From positions 8,422 through 72,421 of the forward strand of contig JACPDF010000021.1 of the NCBI GenBank assembly GCA_016184145.1: 64,000 nucleotides of DNA, given 5' to 3'. Source of the DNA: Candidatus Woesearchaeota archaeon. GTDB taxonomy: Archaea > Nanobdellota > Nanobdellia > Woesearchaeales > GW2011-AR4. How positions within the stretch are numbered: position 1 is the first letter of the stretch; each line of letters starts with the position of its first letter. This document shows positions 4,615 to 36,206 of the stretch, in pieces. Below the pieces are notes generated by a model that had not been told where the DNA came from, ran no database searches, and saw only the letters and a list, made by a program, of their open reading frames with translations. The translations under genes and the position numbers were made by a program.

Positions 4615-7600
4615 ATGAATAAAAAATACAGACAAAAAATTGCAGTAATGCTAAGCATATTAGTTGTAATGCTGCCGATATATTCTTCCATTGTATTTGC
4701 TAATTTATCCAAAATAGAGGCCCGCGGTAAGGACAATGTGAATAATTATATGAGAGAAGAGGATTTCATCACATTCAAGGCAACCGCTTCCATATCTGGA
4801 GACAGCGCAATAACTCCAAACCAGGTGCTTTTGGGCTCTGATCTGCAGTTTGACAGCTGCAAGGCAGGCATAGACGGCTTTGACTGCACCTTAAGGTTCC
4901 CTGGGAACGGGACAACAGTATTTGACGCAAGGGCCATTCCTTACACAGTAACATTAAAGAATGATGCAGGAAATGTCGTAGAGGCAAAAACCGACAGCAT
5001 TTTTGTTGACAATCTGCCTCCGGAAATTACTTCTTTTAGTGTTGACCAGGCTCTTGTAAGCTCTGGCGTTGTAAGATTTAGTTTTGATGTTGTAGATCAT
5101 GCCTGTGCAGCCTCTTCATGTTCTGGAAAGTGCTCAGGCATCAGCAGGGTTGAGCTTTCTGACAGTAACAGCAATTACAAGGATACCATCACTTTAAACA
5201 CTGACTCATGCACTATTACTAAGGTATTTGAAACATCCTCGTTGGAGTTCTCAGAAGGTGCTCATGTAATATTGGCAAAAGCATTTGATAGGTTTGATCA
5301 GTTATCAACAGCATCAGCAGCCTTTCAGCTTGACAAAAGCGCCCCTTTCATTGACTTAAACACCTTCAAGGTTGTTGATAGCCTGGATATAGACCTAAGC
5401 TCTTTTGGAATTAACCCTGTGCCTGTGACAGTAAAGATTGACATAAAAGACACTGATTTGAATAAGGACAATGTGTTTGCTAATTTAAGCGAGCTTAATA
5501 AAAACGCCGGTCTTGGAAATGCGCAGGCTGCTTGCGGTGCGACTGAAAATGATATAACAACATGCTCATGGCAGATAAGCCTTGCTCCTGACGGCTCTGG
5601 GCTAAAGAAAGTCACTATACTCGCTTCCGACAGCTCTGGAAATAATGCAAAGACAGAGATAACAAAGAGCTTTGGGCTGGACAACGAGGGCCCTGTTGTC
5701 CTTTCTTTGGCTACTTCCCAGGTTATAGACGGCCAGAGCTTTGCTAAATCAAATAATAATACTTTTATTGCCACTTTCAGGGATGAGGCAGGAGTAAAAC
5801 CAACAGACATTAAGCTGCATGCAGACGCTCTTGTTAAGGATGCAGACTCATGCGCTCAAGTAGTGGACATATGGCAGTGCACCTGGAGCAATATCAATCT
5901 CCTCAATCCGGGAAAAGTAAAGGTCTTCATCGATACTGATTCAAAGGACAGGGTAGGTAATGCTGTTTCGGAGAAATTTGAGAGAGAGGTCGTTGTTGAC
6001 TCTGCAAATCCAAAATTGATTCAGCTGGTTGTAAAAGGCATTGGCGGAAAGCAGGAAACAATTGAAGACTTTATTATCGCAGGGGACAAGCTGCAGGTCG
6101 AGGCAGTTATAGAAGATGATAGCCTGCAGAAAGCTGTTGCAGATTTTTCCAGATTTATATTTAATGCCCAAGAGGTTGATGCAGATGCGTGCACAAAGAC
6201 TGGAGAGAAAACAGTTGTATGCTCATGGACTACTTCCAGCATAGACATAGAAGGCTTTATTGATGATTTTATAAGGTTTGAATTTACTGATATTGCAGGC
6301 AATACCCTGGAAGCCAAGGAGCCTTTGAAGGTTTTTGGGGTGACAGGAGGCGAGACTCCTGATTTCTGGCAAAGCGCTGTCCAGTGCTCCCCATCTTTAT
6401 TGGATAGGGAAACAATGCCGCTGATAAACCAGAGGGCTTTTTGTTTGGTTTCTTTAAGGCCAAAATCATTGGTGGATGATCTAGGCACATTCGAGGATGT
6501 GGAGCCCGTAAGCGCAAGCTTAGGGGAATGCAATGGAGATTTAAGCTTTGTTGACGATATTAAATTGGAAAATAATGAATTCAGCAAAGAGCCTTTGATA
6601 AGGATCAACTTCAGGAAGCAGGATGCTAACATAGATAAGCTTGATTTTCTATGCCCTATTGACATAATATCGAGGAAAGGCAACAATATTTTCACAGTGC
6701 CAGAAAAAGAAAATGTAGATATAACTTTCCAGCTCTACAACCAGCCTCTCGGAGAAGTTAGCGAGAGCGTCCAGAAAAAGATTGATGATGCAGTTGAAGA
6801 TTCAAATAATATACTGAAAGTTGCGACTTTCTTCAAAAAGATTTTCTTTTATGGTCAGAGGACTTGCGAAATTGGGAATACAATTGTCAATGTTATAGTT
6901 TTATACAAAGTTGCTGGTAAAGTATGGGCTAATTGGGATGCTGCAACTACAGGAACACCAGCAAATCCACCAGCTAAAGCGCAAAGAATATCCTGGGATA
7001 TTATAACTGAAGAAGCAAGGCAGGAAACTTTAAAGGGATGGCCATTTTTCACAAAAGCATGCAACTTTGTCAATTGCAAGACCGTTATAGATACAGGTTC
7101 TGGTGCATTAAGGGTTGATGAAACGGCTATCACATTTAAGTTTGAAGACCCGGATTCCCTTTTGGGAAAATGGAGGCAGGCAGGAAACGGAATTATTAAA
7201 ACCTTGGATGTTGAGGGTGTTGTAAGCAAATATGTAGGGGGAGGAGGCAAAGAGAGCAACCCTGCTAGGTTCATGAACCCCAAAGACAGCATTGTAGTCG
7301 CATCTTTGACAGCGTGCATTCCTGGAATAATTTACGGCTTGGACAAGTACAGGCAGATACAATGCATGTATGCTGACTGCTTGCAGACGGGCGTTGGCGA
7401 GCAGGGCCTGCCTGTATTTGCATGTGAGGACCAAAAAGGCTATGCCACATGCAAGTATGTTGTAGGAGAGGCTTTCAAAGTCATACCCATAACAGCTGCA
7501 TTTGATTATTATGCAAATTTAATAAAATCCACTTTGGCAAACCCGTTCAAGATATTGGGAGCTGGAATGGCAGCTGCATGCAACCCGGCAATTGTGGCAG

Positions 7601-25744: not shown

Positions 25745-26444
25745 AACTTACTTGCCCTCATTGATAACTATAATAACAACCGCTACAATAGATTCAATTA
25801 ATCCATGCGCTATTGGTGTAATAATACTGATGATATCTGTTCTGCTTGCGGCAAGGCAGTCAATAAAAAAAGTCCTTTTCCTGGGAAGCATTTATATTAT
25901 ATCTGTGTATATAGTTTATTTCCTTGCAGGTCTGGGTTTAACATATTATTTTTCAACATTGCCCCTATACCTGACAGAGTATATTGCTATTGCAGTAGCC
26001 TCATTGATTATTATTGGAGGAATTTTAGAGATTAAGGACTATTTCTGGTACGGAAGATGGTTTTCATTGTCTATACCTCACGGACTATCAAAAAAAATAC
26101 ACAAATATGCAACTAAAACCACGATAGTAGGAGTTATACTGCTTGGTGCATTTGTCTCCGGGGTCGAGCTGCCCTGCACTGGTGGTCCATATCTTGCAAT
26201 CATAACATTGCTGTCCCAAAACTTCAACACAACTGCATTTTTCCTGCTGGTGATATACAACATAATTTTTGTCCTGCCTTTGATTGTGATATTGCTGATG
26301 GTAGTGCTTGGAATGAAGCTGCATAAGATAAAAAGATGGAAGCAGGGAGCCAGGCCTTACACGAGACTGCTGATAGGCTTATTGTTAATAGGCTTGGGAT
26401 GGCTGTTAATGCTAATTGCAAATGGAACTGTTAATTTAGGGTAA
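25734..26444 (+). CDS. CcdA/DsbD-like thiol-disulfide transmembrane protein
   Basis: Six TM helices, with Cys in TM1 (SINPCAIGV) and a second membrane-embedded Cys-Pro (ELPCTGGPY), as in the CcdA/DsbD family. Confidence 0.45.
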   Translation: MAVETYLPSLITIITTATIDSINPCAIGVIILMISVLLAARQSIKKVLFLGSIYIISVYIVYFLAGLGLTYYFSTLPLYLTEYIAIAVASLIIIGGILEIKDYFWYGRWFSLSIPHGLSKKIHKYATKTTIVGVILLGAFVSGVELPCTGGPYLAIITLLSQNFNTTAFFLLVIYNIIFVLPLIVILLMVVLGMKLHKIKRWKQGARPYTRLLIGLLLIGLGWLLMLIANGTVNLG

Positions 26445-26446
26445 AA

Positions 26447-26749
26447 ATGAAAAAAATATCAAAAGAAGGGCAGATATGCAAATACTGCATTGTAAAGAGA
26501 AAGGGCCATGCAGAGGAATTTGACGAGAGGAAGGTATATGCCAGCTGCTATGCAGCATGCCTGAATGCGCAGATAGAGCATAAAAAAGCAGAGAAAATAT
26601 GCGAGAAAGTTTCCAGAGAGCTTAAAACATGGGCAAGGAAAAAGAAGTATGCAGACTCAAAAGAGATTTTCAAAAAAGTGACAGCTGCTATAAAAAGGCA
26701 TGATAAGAATGCAGCTTTCATGTACGAAACGCATAGGGATATTTCTTAG
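26447..26749 (+). CDS. ATP-cone domain protein
   Basis: KYCIVKRKGHAEEFDERKVYASCYAAC resembles the ATP-cone signature (V-KR-G--E-FD--KI). The protein is 100 aa. Confidence 0.45.
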   Translation: MKKISKEGQICKYCIVKRKGHAEEFDERKVYASCYAACLNAQIEHKKAEKICEKVSRELKTWARKKKYADSKEIFKKVTAAIKRHDKNAAFMYETHRDIS

Positions 26750-26760
26750 GGATAAAAAAG

Positions 26761-26868
26761 CCTCCGGTGGGATCTGCACCCACGACCTTTGCCTTTTTAG
26801 GCTGCATAGTACCAAGGCTTCGCGGATACTTTTGGTATCTAACGCAATAGCTACTATGCTACGGAGGC
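26761..26868 (-). ncRNA. tRNA-like structured small RNA (non-canonical; possibly an intron-containing or degenerate tRNA)
   Basis: On the minus strand, a 5' GCCUCCG pairs with a 3' CGGAGGC. A T-arm-like GUGGG-UGCAGAU-CCCAC is present. An internal 8-bp helix GCAUAGUA/UACUAUGC encloses a hairpin GAUAC-CAAAA-GUAUC. The element is followed by an oligo-T run. It does not fold as a canonical 76-nt cloverleaf. Confidence 0.3.
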
Positions 26869-26915
26869 GTTAATTAGTGAAAATCTAGGCTTGTTTTTAA
26901 AAATTGCTATATATA

Positions 26916-27776
26916 CTAAGAATATAAGGTGGTCTTTATGTAACTCAAAGGCAAATCATTAAAATTAGGGTAGAAAGTAAGAGGATTTAAACGACCATTC
27001 AAAACCTTAAGCCTTTCATTCAAAGTGGTATAAGGAGGGCAAAATCCAGATTTCTCCCAAATGTTTACTTTAGTAACATGTTTAAGATTCTTAAAACCAA
27101 TGTCTTTTATCCATTTTAAGACATCACTTTTGGAGTCTACTATCACTGAGTGCATAGTATATTCATTTTTTCTTTGTTTTATAGGCTTTTGAATTCTTGG
27201 ATGAAAACCCAAACCTATTAATAAACTATAAACTTCTTCAATTAGAGTATAAGATATTGTAGCTAGTTTTATTTTTGGCCTATAATGAAAAGCATTATAA
27301 ATTGATTTTTTCTTTCTCTTGTTGTAACTTTTGCAAAAATAGATACTTCCATCTGTATCAAACAAACCTCTAATAAAACATATTTTCTCTCTTAGAGTTT
27401 TTATTTTAAAGGGTACAGATATTGCATATTTTTTACCGTTTTTCAAATTAAAATTGCTTTGCAGAAATTGAATAAAATCTCTTTGAAAAACATAAATTCC
27501 ACAAACTCCTACAGATTTATAAATCCTCAACTTTGCCGGATTATTTAATTGACTCGTAAATAAACGATTAAAAGTTGGGACGACAACTTTTTTGTAGAAT
27601 GGGTATTCCTCAACAATATCTCCTGTTAAAGTGTATTGGTAGTGCCGTTTATTAATACTTATACAGCCATCGCCAACATGCCAACCCAGAAATTCTGCTA
27701 ATTCTTCTGAATAATCTTTATTCTCTCCATTATTTGAATTATTTTCAAAATCCAAAATTATATTTTGATTTTTCAT
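26916..27776 (-). CDS. free-standing LAGLIDADG homing endonuclease (two-motif type)
   Basis: Two LAGLIDADG motifs, LAEFLGWHVGDGCIS and IRGLFDTDGSIYF, in a basic 286-aa protein. Confidence 0.8.
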   Translation of the reverse strand: MKNQNIILDFENNSNNGENKDYSEELAEFLGWHVGDGCISINKRHYQYTLTGDIVEEYPFYKKVVVPTFNRLFTSQLNNPAKLRIYKSVGVCGIYVFQRDFIQFLQSNFNLKNGKKYAISVPFKIKTLREKICFIRGLFDTDGSIYFCKSYNKRKKKSIYNAFHYRPKIKLATISYTLIEEVYSLLIGLGFHPRIQKPIKQRKNEYTMHSVIVDSKSDVLKWIKDIGFKNLKHVTKVNIWEKSGFCPPYTTLNERLKVLNGRLNPLTFYPNFNDLPLSYIKTTLYS

Positions 27777-27779
27777 ATT

Positions 27780-28315
27780 TCAGGAATTGGTTTAGGAAAA
27801 AACAAAATAATTAAGATTTGGATATTTAAATACTCTACGCGCGAATGTCCAGTGGAGTATTGGCATGTCCAGTGGGTAAAAAGAGAAGAAATGCGGAGGA
27901 GGGGACTCCCAAATCCTGAGGGATTTGTGGTCTCCCTCTGGGATATTTGAACCCCCGGACCCACTAAGGGACAGGATATCTTCGTTACAACAGAAGTGTC
28001 CAATATGGGCCACTGCTGACCTTAAGTTTCGCAGTGAATTTCTATCCCTCCTGCGCGTTTGGCCAGGCTTCGCTACCTCCGCATCAAAGCCAAAAGAAAA
28101 GAAAACCCTATTTAAACGTTACTGTTAGGAAACTTTTGTATACCCAAGTGACATATGTCACTAGGGAGATATTGAAATATATCGACTACAAAATCAAAAG
28201 GTTGTTTTCAGGTTTGCTCTTCCACTGAAAGGGGTAATAAGGGTTTTTTTGATATCTTTGACGACAAATGGATCTAGCATTGCATTGGTGACAAATGTCA
28301 CTAGGGCGTACACTG
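27780..28315 (-). other. 0.5-kb non-coding region with tRNA-like and palindromic repeat structure
   Basis: No ORF of plausible coding quality. On the minus strand, a 7-bp terminal helix GCGGAGG/CCUCCGC (28082->27891) encloses a tRNA-like 5' end (GCGGAGG-UA-GCGA-AGCCUGGCCAA-ACGC), a T-loop-like GGGGGUUCAAAUAUCCC and several hairpins. Duplicated motifs are GTGACA(T/A)ATGTCACTAGGG (28148..28166, 28288..28306) and ACTGTTAGGAAACTTT (28121..28136, 28312..28327). Confidence 0.35.
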
Positions 28316-28837
28316 TTAGGAAACTTTAATCTTGTACAGCTCAAAAAAGCTCTTCAAGCGTTTATGCAACTCGTAGCAATCAGCTTGTACAGGTCCCTCA
28401 TACCTTTCCGTTATAGTCTGCCCTATTCCCCATATGTATTTGTCATAAAGAGTCCTGAAAAATACGTACAAAGGATTCACCTGAGTCCATCTTGACCTGA
28501 GGATTGTTTCCACCCAGCCATCTATGTTGACAAAAATATTAGCCTCGTTAAACTTTACATACCTCCCTCTCCTTTTCTGACTTACTTCCCTTACATTATC
28601 AAACAAAGCCCTCAGCTTTATCATGTGCTTTACCTCTCTCGCTGGGCTTTTCCATAGTTCAACTGCATATTCTATCCTTTTGCCTTTTGATTTTACTTCC
28701 TCTGATTTTCTCTTTATCTCTTTCTCAAGGCCTTTTTCCCTAGCCCATTTGTCAACTTCTTTATAAAAATCTTCTACTGACAATGGTCCATTGTACTTAA
28801 GCATTAAATCATAAACTACTTGTTTTTTTTCTACCAT
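28316..28837 (-). CDS. unknown-function protein, paralog family member 1 of 3
   Basis: 173 aa. It shares Y-GP...F..I....E.G......SKGK-IE...WK...W-Q-P-F-R-IY--F-YK with 28842..29384 and, more distantly, with 29591..30211. Confidence 0.55.
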   Translation of the reverse strand: MVEKKQVVYDLMLKYNGPLSVEDFYKEVDKWAREKGLEKEIKRKSEEVKSKGKRIEYAVELWKSPAREVKHMIKLRALFDNVREVSQKRRGRYVKFNEANIFVNIDGWVETILRSRWTQVNPLYVFFRTLYDKYIWGIGQTITERYEGPVQADCYELHKRLKSFFELYKIKVS

Positions 28838-28841
28838 TTGA

Positions 28842-29384
28842 TTAATGCGCGGATGCGAAAGGCGCTGCTACCGATATTACCTTATAGCTCCTGTATGTGT
28901 TTAAAAACTGCTCAATGGTGTGGTGCAAATGATGCATGTCATGGGTCAGCTGCTGCTCAAACCTCTCAGTGTAAATTTTGTAGACAAAATTGTTGTAGAT
29001 TGACCTTAAAAACTGAAAAAATGGGAATTGCTCCCATCTGTTTGACTCGTCAAGCTCAAGGTAAGCATCGATATAAATAACCGCCCTTCCGTTCCCAACC
29101 TTGACTTTTTTATTCTCCATTATGGCTTCAACTTTGCTGTAGTCATAAATCAAAATTCTGATTTTAGGCCAATACCTGGCATAATCTGATATTCTTTTCC
29201 AGCATTTTATCTGCCATTCTATTTGTTTTCCCTTGGAGGTGTTATTTTCAAACTCCTTTTCCGTCTTTAAATCCCACCCTCTCTCCTTTAGAAAAGCGGT
29301 TATGTGCTTGAACAATGAGTTGGCATCAAAAGGCCCTTCATAATTAAGCCTTAGATGGTCAACAGTCAGCCTTAACTCAGACAT
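28842..29384 (-). CDS. unknown-function protein, paralog family member 2 of 3
   Basis: 180 aa, 4 nt downstream of member 3's intergenic region and 4 nt upstream of member 1, so members 1 and 2 form an operon. Confidence 0.55.
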   Translation of the reverse strand: MSELRLTVDHLRLNYEGPFDANSLFKHITAFLKERGWDLKTEKEFENNTSKGKQIEWQIKCWKRISDYARYWPKIRILIYDYSKVEAIMENKKVKVGNGRAVIYIDAYLELDESNRWEQFPFFQFLRSIYNNFVYKIYTERFEQQLTHDMHHLHHTIEQFLNTYRSYKVISVAAPFASAH

Positions 29385-29391
29385 GCTAAAA

Positions 29392-29418
29392 ATTCACCTC
29401 GTGAATTTTTGCACACAA
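29392..29418. promoter_or_regulatory. perfect 10-bp inverted repeat at the promoter of paralog 2
   Basis: AAAAATTCAC-ctc-GTGAATTTTT lies 8-35 nt upstream of the ATG of 28842..29384. Confidence 0.4.
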
Positions 29419-29495
29419 GAGCGAAGCTCTGTGCCGAACTCCGTTCGTGCACCGAAAATCTAATGGAAATCTCTTTGAAATTCTTTGAATTTCTA

Positions 29496-29578
29496 AGAGA
29501 TACAGAAAATCTTTGATTTTCTCGTATCTTTGATTTCCAGTAGATACCAAAAATCCTTTGGATTTTTTAGTATCTTTG
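29496..29578. repeat. two adjacent imperfect ~32-bp palindromes between paralogs 3 and 2
   Basis: GATACAGAAAATC-TTT-GATTTTCTCGTATC and GATACCAAAAATCC-TTT-GGATTTTTTAGTATC. These could be a terminator or an operator. Confidence 0.35.
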
Positions 29579-29590
29579 ATTTTCATGTGT

Positions 29591-30211
29591 TTATCTCACC
29601 TTGGCGAAGTACCTGTGTTCATATCCTTCAGCTTCCATCTTTAGCCTTTCTTTAACCAAAGAATGCAGTTTCAGGAAAACATTATAATGCATGGTGTCCC
29701 ACCATATGGCCTCTATCTTTTTCCATATGACATATTTGTGGTAAAAGTTCCTTAAATTGACATAGAAGGCATTTTCCTCCCATCTTTTGTCATAATCAGT
29801 CTCAACCTTTCCTAGGAATTGTATCCACAATCTTCCTTTTGTAAAGGTTTTTTTTGTGCCGTCTTTCATGGCAACTTCCACATCCTGTGTGTCGTATGTA
29901 TGCAGGAACAGCGTGATAACAAAGCGGTAATATTCCTCAACGTCCCTCTTTGCCTCCCACACATGATATGTTTCAGGACCGAAGGGCCCGGGATGCTTCA
30001 CAATATACCTTTTCTCATAAAACTTGAACTTGTTCTTAGTAAAAAAAGAAGCCACAAACTCATACAAATCCTGCATGTCCCAGACCCCCTTATATTGTAT
30101 GTATGTTGGCCATGTAGGCGCTTCCTTATGCGTCCAGGGTAAAGGTTCCACCATGAGAAAATTCCCGTATAGAATGTATATAAATGTTGCGGAAAATTTG
30201 TGATTTCGCAA
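29591..30211 (-). CDS. unknown-function protein, paralog family member 3 of 3
   Basis: 206 aa, a divergent member of the same family, with the motifs Y.G...L..F..F, WE..R, LR.FY.KY. Confidence 0.5.
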   Translation of the reverse strand: MRNHKFSATFIYILYGNFLMVEPLPWTHKEAPTWPTYIQYKGVWDMQDLYEFVASFFTKNKFKFYEKRYIVKHPGPFGPETYHVWEAKRDVEEYYRFVITLFLHTYDTQDVEVAMKDGTKKTFTKGRLWIQFLGKVETDYDKRWEENAFYVNLRNFYHKYVIWKKIEAIWWDTMHYNVFLKLHSLVKERLKMEAEGYEHRYFAKVR

Positions 30212-35123: not shown

Positions 35124-36206
35124 ATGAAAATAAAAATATATATTTCACTAATCTTAGTTTTCATATTAAATTTTTTTATAGTGAATGCTATTGATTCTGT
35201 TACAGATGCACTGATAGAAGGTCAAACAAAAACATATACGATTGACGGCAAGACTTATGAAGTTACACCGAATTTTATTGACTCGGACGAAGCACAGTAT
35301 ATTGTTAATGGTAGAGTAACTAAAAAATTGAAAGCTGGTGATACTTATAATATATCAGAAGACATAGTAATTGGTGTAATAAACATTTTGTACCAAGACT
35401 ATGCTGGTGGCATTCACAGCACAACATTTGCTCTTACCCAAATAGAGCGATGTGGCAATAGTATATGCGGTGAAGGAGAAACATGCTCATCATGCCAACA
35501 AGATTGCGGCTGTGTTTCAGGATATGCGTGCCAATCAGAACAATGTATACAAGTAGTATTCTGCGGAGATAATAAATGCGGCCCTGAAGAAACTTGTGAA
35601 AAAGATAATTGCTGCTATGGAAGAACTGTTGATTTGAATTCTGATAGATACTATTGCGGTTCTTGCGGCAATGTTTGTATTACTAATCAAGACTGTATTT
35701 CTGGCATCTGTAAATTTCCTGAATATTGTGGAGATGACGCTTGCAATTCAAACGAGAACTGTGGAACTTGTGCTGAAGATTGTGCTTGTGCAAAAAACAC
35801 AAGATGTGAGTTAAATAAATGTGTAACTTACTGTGGTAACGGAATTTGCGAATCAAATGAGAAAGGTATTTGCAAAGCAGATTGCAAATGGTGCGGTGAT
35901 AGCAGTTGCAATGGCAATGAAGATTATAAAAAGTGTCCTCAAGATTGTGAAAGACCAATTATTTGCAGCGATAAAATATGTGATAATAATGAAAACTGTT
36001 GCATAGATTGTGGTTGTGATATTGGTTACGAGTGCATAAGTAATTCTTGTGTTTTAGCTTATGAATGCATATCAAATTCTGATTGTGGTGGTAATGAGGT
36101 CTGCATCAATAATAAATGTGTTTTAGTTGCTCAAAATACAATAAAAGAAGGACAAAATGTTTTGCAAGTTGTTATTAAATGGTTTTTTGGTTTATTTAGG
36201 AGGTAG
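35124..36206 (+). CDS. secreted Cys-rich protein with about 8 tandem CGxxxC…E.C..C..DC modules
   Basis: Signal peptide, then repeated modules such as CGNSICGEGETCSSCQQDCGC and CGDDACNSNENCGTCAEDCAC. Confidence 0.6.
   Translation: MKIKIYISLILVFILNFFIVNAIDSVTDALIEGQTKTYTIDGKTYEVTPNFIDSDEAQYIVNGRVTKKLKAGDTYNISEDIVIGVINILYQDYAGGIHSTTFALTQIERCGNSICGEGETCSSCQQDCGCVSGYACQSEQCIQVVFCGDNKCGPEETCEKDNCCYGRTVDLNSDRYYCGSCGNVCITNQDCISGICKFPEYCGDDACNSNENCGTCAEDCACAKNTRCELNKCVTYCGNGICESNEKGICKADCKWCGDSSCNGNEDYKKCPQDCERPIICSDKICDNNENCCIDCGCDIGYECISNSCVLAYECISNSDCGGNEVCINNKCVLVAQNTIKEGQNVLQVVIKWFFGLFRR

Follow-up and report, generated by a model that had tools for sequence, protein, structure and literature searches.

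A free-standing LAGLIDADG homing endonuclease gene, probably targeted to a tRNA locus, between two intron-bearing tRNA genes of a Woesearchaeota archaeon

Why does a stand-alone gene for a LAGLIDADG protein lie between two structured RNAs, with all three on the same strand? This question is raised by a stretch of 64,000 nucleotides (nt) of DNA (hereafter, the window; G+C content, 38.6%) from a Candidatus Woesearchaeota archaeon, a member of the DPANN archaea, in which a two-motif LAGLIDADG homing endonuclease gene (HEG) is flanked by a tRNA-like RNA on either side. An initial annotation of the window had described this layout and offered as readings a large HEG-containing intron in a single structured RNA gene, a degenerating mobile intron, or the invasion of a tRNA locus by a HEG. 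Here we argue for the last of these: it is likely that a cassette of ~1.0 kb, which would have been inserted into the spacer of an ancestral tRNA-Leu(UAA)-tRNA-Thr(GGU) tandem, encodes a stand-alone homing endonuclease that targets a tRNA locus. The gene itself is the following.

26916..27776, minus strand: free-standing gene for a two-motif LAGLIDADG homing endonuclease of 286 amino acids (aa), an open reading frame (ORF) from ATG to stop

The gene proved to be as first described, since the 286-aa product matches Pfam LAGLIDADG_3 (E=4.9e-10, exceeding the curated cutoff), carries the motifs ..LGWHVGDGC.. and ..RGLFDTDGS.. in one polypeptide, and has 244 homologues. The protein is identical to NCBI entry HYU50_01980, and the identical gene is carried by the source samples SRR12113425, SRR12113429, and SRR12113430. 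In an alignment over 34 homologues (40 to 74% identity), one acidic residue per motif, D36 (in GDGC) and D142 (in DTDG), is invariant, and a C-terminal stretch, GFKNxKHxTK..GFCPPxTT, is conserved. An AlphaFold model built from this alignment (predicted local distance difference test score, 91.9; predicted template modeling score, 0.88) features two alpha-beta-beta-alpha-beta-beta-alpha domains with a DNA-binding saddle, and a Foldseek search of the PDB with it returned I-DmoI and I-Tsp061I as top matches (E about 3e-9; template modeling [TM] score to target, 0.7 to 0.77), followed by the intein endonuclease PI-PfuI, all three at a Foldseek probability of 1.0. A sequence-profile search likewise led to PI-PfuI and I-Tsp061I. 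The comparison with the closest relative, L210 (74% aa identity; loci are cited by L numbers throughout), yielded a nonsynonymous rate (dN) of 0.149 and a synonymous rate (dS) of 0.926, i.e., a ratio of ~0.16. The gene is intact and purifying selection acts on it, and, as judged from alignment and model, it encodes a monomeric LAGLIDADG homing endonuclease with intact catalytic residues, for which DNA cleavage is predicted. No other LAGLIDADG gene was found in the rest of the window.

The two neighbors of the gene, which are co-oriented with it on the minus strand as the initial annotation had stated, resolve into the following features.

27892..28082, minus strand: tRNA-Leu(UAA) gene, 191 nt including the discriminator, with three introns (ARAGORN on the hand-spliced sequence, and homologous multi-intron genes adjoining orthologous HEGs)
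28028..28049, minus strand: tRNA-Leu intron 1, 22 nt, without an ORF, at position 30/31 (central bulge-helix-bulge [BHB] helix; 3' end TGCG-AA)
27978..28020, minus strand: tRNA-Leu intron 2, 43 nt, at the canonical position 37/38 (removal required for the anticodon loop CTTAAGA)
27906..27945, minus strand: tRNA-Leu intron 3, 40 nt, in the T loop, at position 59/60 (removal restores GGGGG-TTCAAAT-CCCCT)
26759..26868, minus strand: tRNA-Thr(GGU) gene, 110 nt, with two introns (comparison with homologues L008, L095, L132, and L162)
26819..26840, minus strand: tRNA-Thr intron, 22 nt, at position 28/29 (helix TGCG/CGCG, 3-nt bulge, and 5-bp inner hairpin GATAC/GTATC, by inspection)
26795..26809, minus strand: tRNA-Thr canonical intron, 15 nt, at position 37/38 (homologue comparison)

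The tRNA-like RNAs are thus real, but they are whole tRNA genes and not fragments. Spliced, the sequence from 28082 to 27892 is a perfect 86-nt tRNA-Leu(taa) according to ARAGORN, with a closed acceptor stem (GCGGAGG/CCTCCGC), and the downstream RNA yields a 73-nt tRNA-Thr(ggt) by the same program. Both are complete, functional-looking tRNA genes with BHB-type introns, the splicing of which is predicted. The related hexamers that had been noticed at the ends facing the HEG (..CCTCCGC and GCCTCCG..) do exist; the first belongs to the acceptor stem of tRNA-Leu, as its 3' strand, and the second to that of tRNA-Thr, as its 5' strand. Because each is paired within its own tRNA and the repeat is not common to related loci, they are neither intron ends nor a target-site duplication.

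These findings bear directly on the proposal that the ORF is the core of one large or degenerating intron, with the flanks being the halves of a single structured RNA. Three co-oriented features, a hexamer common to the neighboring ends, and relatives that are intron encoded (see below) all speak for it; however, the 7-bp acceptor stem of each flank is closed within that flank, the two spliced products are complete tRNAs that differ in identity, acceptor pairs bracketing the ORF were detected by a scan in L034 only and not in the window, orthologues keep the tRNA-Leu gene but have protein genes on the other side, and the ORF has a TATA box of its own. Furthermore, a search with Rfam over 26400..28500 matched no RNA or intron model even at E<=10, including no group I intron. 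We therefore regard a single interrupted RNA gene as very improbable for this locus.

Neither tRNA gene is visible to standard annotation: in the raw 64-kb window, ARAGORN (by default and with introns allowed) and Rfam at the gathering score detected no tRNA, since both genes are interrupted by BHB introns. Several shortcuts were discarded. Brute-force excision of one or two segments from the downstream RNA gave many contradictory ARAGORN calls, which were resolved solely via the homologues; two relaxed ARAGORN matches, at 36048 and 58765, were dropped because they lie within coding-like sequence; and a first scan of our own for acceptor, D-arm, and T-arm combinations was too noisy (88 hits in the window), while one with stricter criteria could be used. 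In this lineage, default annotation misses tRNA genes with several introns, and the tRNA complements of DPANN archaea are probably undercalled. As a separate observation, the T loop of tRNA-Thr is nonstandard, reading TGCA(G/A)(A/T)T in place of TTC(A/G)A(A/T)T, with changes at position 55 and, in some copies, at position 58 (TGCAGAT in the window; also in L008, L011, L016, L095, L132, L162, and L197). The odd loop is common to the lineage and is therefore no sign of tRNA-Thr decay.

Scanning metagenomes for the conserved 5' half of the tRNA-Leu gene, we collected 120 loci, about 84 of them tRNA-Leu(UAA) genes, and found an adjacent HEG at only two of the latter (L110 and L151). At 17 HEG-less loci (L197, L186, L205, and 14 more), the tRNA-Thr(GGU) gene begins 6 to 89 nt after the tRNA-Leu(UAA) gene, separated by a T-rich spacer, and it is exactly this spacer that holds the ~1.0-kb cassette in the window and in L151, in the order Leu-HEG-Thr. 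Some of the empty loci share further features with the window: L197 and L186 share its upstream gene (C terminus ..LYKMKVG/E versus ..LYKIKVS), L205 shares its T-loop intron, and the spliced tRNA-Leu sequences of the compared empty loci match that of the window at 75 to 79 of 86 nt. The empty Leu-Thr junction of L197 reads ..CCCTTCCCCCGCATTTTTTATGCCTCTGTAGC.., and intron-less tRNA-Leu(UAA) DNA reads ..GCGCAGGACTTAAGATCCTGTC... The homologous site is therefore polymorphic for the presence of the HEG among loci of different lineages, presence and absence having been scored across divergent metagenomic lineages and not within one population. By sequence comparison, a spacer filled in some loci and empty in others is the classic pattern of a cassette inserted into a conserved site, and the initial proposal of a HEG invasion at a tRNA locus is the one supported by these loci.

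The association with tRNA genes extends far beyond the window. The family was surveyed at 80 loci in species-representative genomes, and, wherever the contig allows a view, every relative at least 36% identical to the window protein adjoins a tRNA-Leu(UAA) gene. This linkage is found in four layouts. The tRNA gene lies upstream on the same strand (the window, L004, L006, L008/L011, L014, L015, and L210), upstream and divergent (L010, L012, L013, L023, and L026), immediately downstream on the same strand (L016, L019 to L022, L024, L025, and L027 to L032), or downstream and convergent (L017). At the orthologue loci, tRNA-Leu(UAA) is kept, and the other side of the HEG is occupied by a protein gene (SIS/PGI, NFACT, AP endonuclease, or adenine glycosylase). 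Paralogues of about 30% identity adjoin other tRNA genes immediately on their 5' side and in the same orientation, and clustering of the proteins produced clades that match the identity of the tRNA, namely, Leu(UAA), Arg(UCG), His(GUG), Leu(CAA), and Ser; one further clade adjoins a multi-intron tRNA gene, which we read as Ile(UAU). Over the whole survey, a same-strand tRNA starts within 100 nt on either side of the ORF end at 45 of the 80 loci, compared with 0.33 expected (ARAGORN; expectation taken from the tRNA density of the distal flanks). Several genomes contain more than one paralogue, and truncated copies occur (e.g., L026, with 157 aa). The family is large: a profile search of 1.84 billion cluster representatives retrieved 186 clusters at E<=1e-30 and 1,824 at E<=1e-10.

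That tRNA genes cluster in many genomes would allow the window's arrangement to be a mere chance neighborhood, with an ordinary gene lying between two tRNA genes. Against this stand the 45 abutting tRNAs, the match between clades and tRNA identity, and the survival of the tRNA-Leu(UAA) linkage through four arrangements, and we give coincidence next to no credence, less even than the single interrupted RNA gene. The linkage is not absolute in the family, since no tRNA was found near L213. There (L213:1501-2637, Diapherotrites), a 378-aa relative with 38% identity to the L034 protein is located between an HMG-CoA synthase-like gene and a thiolase gene. In the literature searched, the coverage of which is incomplete, no prior description of free-standing LAGLIDADG genes linked to tRNA genes was found; these loci apparently represent an undescribed, large DPANN endonuclease family, each clade of which is tied to one tRNA gene.

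Another observation was that in paralogous clades (L033, L037, L039, L042, L044, L047, L052, L063, and others) the ORF enters the downstream tRNA gene. In such loci, the stop codon TAG coincides with nt 8 to 10 of the tRNA (offset -9) or is found at offset -14, and some loci of the His clade have an ORF that extends across the entire tRNA. An ORF overlapping its downstream tRNA implies cotranscription, and cleavage by RNase P would strip the stop codon from the mRNA. Two loci, L041 and L043, were considered as candidates for a HEG within an intron and were rejected, since the tRNA only overlaps the 3' end of the ORF.

Genuine intron-encoded relatives do exist. In L034 (L034:2894-3746, Micrarchaeota) and its 93% relative L214, the HEG is contained in a ~770-nt intervening sequence of a tRNA-Thr(UGU) gene. 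Exon 1 of L034 ends with ..GAGCACCTG, the intron starts with T-GCGCAGAAGC and ends with GCTTCTGCGC-GGTG-AA, and it is followed by the anticodon loop CTTGTAA, a second short intron, and the tRNA's 3' half. Its junctions form a textbook BHB, with a 4-bp helix (CACC/GGTG), 3-nt bulges, and a 10-bp inner helix, and this BHB is present in the minimum-energy fold of a minimal precursor (z=-4.7). In L211 (L211:903-1700) and L212, the HEG lies inside a ~700-nt BHB intron of a tRNA-Lys(CUU) gene, likewise at position 30/31. The group I intron models of Rfam had no match at the gathering score in the window, L034, or L211. Thus, in two tRNA genes, on three contigs, the HEG resides in an intron at position 30/31, the same position as that of the 22-nt intron in the window's tRNA-Leu gene. 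The intron idea of the initial annotation accordingly fails for the window locus and holds for these relatives, and an evolutionary kinship of the window gene with a mobile tRNA intron is still a viable reading. In the searched literature (again with incomplete coverage), no ORF-bearing BHB introns in tRNA genes were reported.

The 22-nt intron itself has recognizable kin. Its central helix pairs exon CGCA (nt 25 to 28) with intron TGCG, and next comes a bulge of 3 nt formed by AA and exon A31; a 31/32 register yields an identical product, with 30/31 being the best placement. Among homologous introns at this position, the 4-bp central helix is kept in 24 of 26 distinct sequences, together with 16 different inner helices, and the inner hairpin directly abuts it. 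Since the central helix (CGCA/TGCG, GGCA/TGCC or TGCT, and AGCA/TGCT) and the inner helices covary, the 30/31 intron carries the BHB signature, in the window in a relaxed form owing to its weak inner helix. The other two tRNA-Leu introns are relaxed BHBs as well, with central helices that contain one mismatch or two G-U pairs: at 37/38, exon CTTA faces intron GAAG with three of four pairs in the window (TAAG in homologues), and at 59/60 the intron is homologous in L205, the helix being TTCA/TGGG in the window, TTCA/TGAA in L205, and TTCG/CGAA in L125. Two further features of these genes are recorded here. The tRNA-Leu(UAA) gene of the closest relative (L210:1855-2040) has an extra insertion of ~30 nt directly after nt 9 (exon GCGAGGGTA, insertion atcattaag...cctcag, exon AGCGAAGCC); from its place, it is an intron of the D-arm region, absent from the window's gene. 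In addition, many canonical 37/38 introns of tRNA-Leu(UAA) contain GGACAC (L090 to L209, various contigs; e.g., TGGACACTT; 27990..27997 in the window).

Position 30/31 is also where HEG and intron go together statistically. Of 29 tRNA-Leu(UAA) genes linked to a HEG, 22 have an intron at this position, as opposed to 3 of 38 without a HEG, the latter counted only where each side offered at least 1 kb of flank (Fisher's exact test with shared ancestry ignored, p=1.1e-8), and all 12 close-orthologue loci carry it. It is tempting to speculate that this reflects collaborative homing, in which the endonuclease would cut intron-less tRNA-Leu(UAA) genes at 30/31, the 22-nt intron would protect the resident gene, and intron and HEG would be converted together; the free-standing and the intron-encoded (L034 and L211) states would then be two stages of one life cycle. 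In line with this idea, homologous HEGs lie inside 30/31 BHB introns of tRNA-Thr(UGU) and tRNA-Lys(CUU), L076 pairs a free-standing HEG with an adjoining tRNA-Thr(UGU) gene that has a 30/31 intron, and the window's own HEG is located 115 nt downstream of a tRNA-Leu(UAA) gene bearing an ORF-less 22-nt intron. On the other hand, the association statistic ignores phylogeny, seven HEG-linked tRNA-Leu genes have no such intron, and HEG-less genes with the intron exist (e.g., L197). We consider collaborative homing possible, somewhat short of probable.

How might a free-standing enzyme spread in this setting? We infer DNA cleavage, its exact target, homing, and the function of the putative promoter from the comparisons above. 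The enzyme would recognize about 20 bp of conserved tRNA-gene DNA in cassette-less alleles, and two candidate targets can be named: the junction of the empty site, composed of the 3' end of tRNA-Leu, the T-run, and the 5' end of tRNA-Thr, which the cassette would split; and the uninterrupted anticodon stem of tRNA-Leu(UAA) around 30/31, which the intron would split. The cut site would be repaired from a cassette-bearing copy with the conserved tRNA sequences as homology arms, and the resident copy would be immune because the cassette, the 30/31 intron, or both split its site. tRNA genes may thus supply both a conserved recognition sequence and the homology arms for copying between diverged genomes.

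Targeting of the tRNA locus by a homing endonuclease fits the data best, since it brings together intact catalytic residues, sporadic presence, empty sites, linkage despite rearrangement, and intron-encoded relatives. Several points weigh against it or narrow it. The filled and empty loci span different lineages, so that repeated loss from a vertically inherited filled state could explain the pattern in place of gain. A target at the Leu/Thr junction is not general, because L004, L006, L008, and L210 have no tRNA-Thr gene directly after the HEG, and neither is intron-based immunity a general rule, given that 7 of the 29 tRNA-Leu genes linked to orthologues have no 30/31 intron and that the Arg and His clades abut intron-less tRNAs. 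Finally, the purifying selection, the C-terminal extension, and a conserved motif upstream of the gene would also suit a protein that benefits its host, i.e., a domesticated one.

This upstream motif is part of the interval between the two tRNA genes, which measures 1,023 nt in the window and comprises, from tRNA-Leu to tRNA-Thr, a T-run, two copies of CCACTGGACAT, a TATA-like TTTAAATA, the ORF, and 47 nt containing TATATATA. A second TATA-like element precedes the tRNA-Leu gene.

27842..27876, minus strand: two copies of CCACTGGACAT, 20 nt apart, just 5' of the putative HEG promoter (motif counts)
27820..27833, minus strand: TATA-box-like TTTAAATA, ~45 nt 5' of the ATG, a putative promoter element (read from the sequence)
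28106..28120, minus strand: TATA-like element TTTAAATA, ~25 to 35 nt 5' of tRNA-Leu, of presumed promoter function (read from the sequence)

Orthologues have TATA-like elements in the same place, and a scan for sigma-70 promoters and intrinsic terminators was uninformative, the host being an archaeon. Exact matches to CACTGGACA number three in the window, compared with 0.24 expected, and two of them precede the HEG; the third, at 6378, has no LAGLIDADG gene nearby. Over the family loci, 15 matches lie within 200 nt upstream of a HEG on the coding strand, and 4 lie elsewhere in 471 kb times two strands; the closest relative, L210, has this double copy as well. Since the motif precedes clades with different tRNA partners, it belongs to the cassette and not to the target, and for the same reason the notion that it mimics an anticodon-stem target in tRNA-Leu was rejected. 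It could be an operator or activator site. The GGACAC found in the 37/38 introns resembles the core of CACTGGACA, which may be coincidence or may point to a common ancestry of the introns.

With CACTGGACA as its operator, the protein could be a domesticated host factor, either a DNA-binding regulator resembling WhiA or a factor for tRNA expression or processing. The dN/dS ratio of 0.16 and the conserved C-terminal helical extension (GFKNxKHxTK..GFCPPxTT) would suit such a factor, WhiA ranks first by query TM-score (0.56) among the PDB matches, the upstream motif is kept across clades with different tRNA partners, and a genome can hold several paralogues. However, both catalytic aspartates are invariant, unlike in WhiA, most tRNA-Leu(UAA) loci have no such gene and the empty sites are clean, truncated copies occur (L026, 157 aa), and relatives are intron encoded in the manner of classical homing endonucleases. 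Given the invariant active site and the patchy distribution, a domesticated role is the less likely explanation; we hold it to be unlikely, though well ahead of a chance neighborhood or a single interrupted RNA gene.

The surroundings of the locus offer a few additional observations. Upstream of tRNA-Leu, within 28121..28327, a 16-nt direct repeat, ACTGTTAGGAAACTTT, occurs in two copies (28121 and 28312), as does a dyad-symmetric element, GTGACA(T/A)ATGTCACTAGGG (28148 and 28288); together, the two pairs form a 25-nt inverted pair around a 126-nt segment, which might bind a regulator or might itself be a small element, either mobile or duplicated. The three ORFs arrayed in tandem at 28316..30211 on the minus strand (173, 180, and 206 aa) are mutual paralogues (27% identity and E=4e-24 for the first pair), and none of them has a Pfam match. 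The same set precedes tRNA-Leu(UAA) in L004, L006, L210, L186, and L197 and represents a conserved DPANN cluster. On the other side, a 100-aa ORF (26447..26749, plus strand) that contains an ATP-cone domain (E=2.7e-9) converges on tRNA-Thr and stops 10 nt short of its 3' end.

How noncanonical archaeal tRNA introns arose, and what makes them so abundant in some lineages, has long been asked. Homing has been demonstrated for archaeal rRNA introns; no mention of it for tRNA introns turned up in the literature searched, the coverage of which is incomplete. A single family now unites HEGs inside BHB tRNA introns, homologues beside tRNAs with ORF-less introns at the same position, and empty sites. 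As a tentative extension of the targeting proposed here, this DPANN LAGLIDADG family might use tRNA genes as homing sites, one clade per tRNA, with the 30/31 BHB introns being mobile HEG-carrying introns or their relics and with the window capturing a collaborative stage, at which an ORF-less intron shields tRNA-Leu(UAA) and both intron and HEG are copied into naive alleles. If true, this would be the first concrete mechanism at the DNA level for the gain and spread of noncanonical archaeal tRNA introns, and it would directly support the view that conflict with mobile elements has shaped the disruption of tRNA genes (Randau and Soll 2008, via PMC4090602). In that review of archaeal tRNA introns (PMC4090602), the words "homing" and "LAGLIDADG" are absent; group I introns with LAGLIDADG genes are described for archaeal rRNA (PMC6125680). 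The family also constitutes a naturally diversified set of monomeric LAGLIDADG enzymes whose probable tRNA-gene targets can be guessed from their context.

Among known systems, the best structural matches are I-DmoI and I-Tsp061I, monomeric archaeal enzymes of rRNA BHB introns, which have the same two-motif single-chain fold; relatives of the window protein are also encoded in BHB introns. For those two enzymes, the ORF lies inside the BHB intron of a stable RNA, as it does in L034/L214 and L211/L212, whereas the window gene is free-standing with its own putative promoter, its product is only about 18 to 20% identical to them, its family is tied to tRNA and not to rRNA genes, and the protein carries, at its C terminus, about 70 aa of additional conserved helical sequence. 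WhiA regulates transcription in bacteria; it descends from a LAGLIDADG endonuclease, with an added C-terminal helix-turn-helix domain, and has lost the catalytic residues. It resembles the window protein in combining a LAGLIDADG core with a C-terminal helical extension (query TM-score, 0.56) and differs in that the window protein keeps both aspartates, the sequence identity being about 10%. In collaborative homing, as Zeng, Bonocora, and Shub reportedly described it in 2009, the free-standing F-CphI acts together with an ORF-less psbA intron of cyanophage S-PM2. There, too, a free-standing HEG adjoins a gene with an ORF-less intron, and homologous enzymes are found in introns at the same position; in contrast to that group I intron in a protein gene, the window intron is a BHB in a tRNA gene, spliced by proteins, and cleavage at its insertion site is hypothetical. 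SegB of phage T4 is a free-standing GIY-YIG homing endonuclease in a tRNA gene cluster and promotes preferential inheritance of its own locus. It shares with the window gene the position of a free-standing endonuclease gene among tRNA genes, and preferential inheritance is the behavior that we propose for the latter; while SegB (discussed in PMC13096335) is of bacteriophage origin and of the GIY-YIG type, the window gene encodes a LAGLIDADG protein in a cellular archaeal genome and belongs to a family of many clades with one tRNA partner each. Lastly, group I introns with LAGLIDADG genes are known from tRNA genes of Patescibacteria (PMC13011429), which parallel the present case in their ultrasmall genomes, intron-hidden tRNA genes, and tRNA-associated LAGLIDADG genes; those introns are self-splicing group I introns of bacteria, whereas the window family is associated with BHB introns with no group I match, and most of its members lie outside the tRNA.

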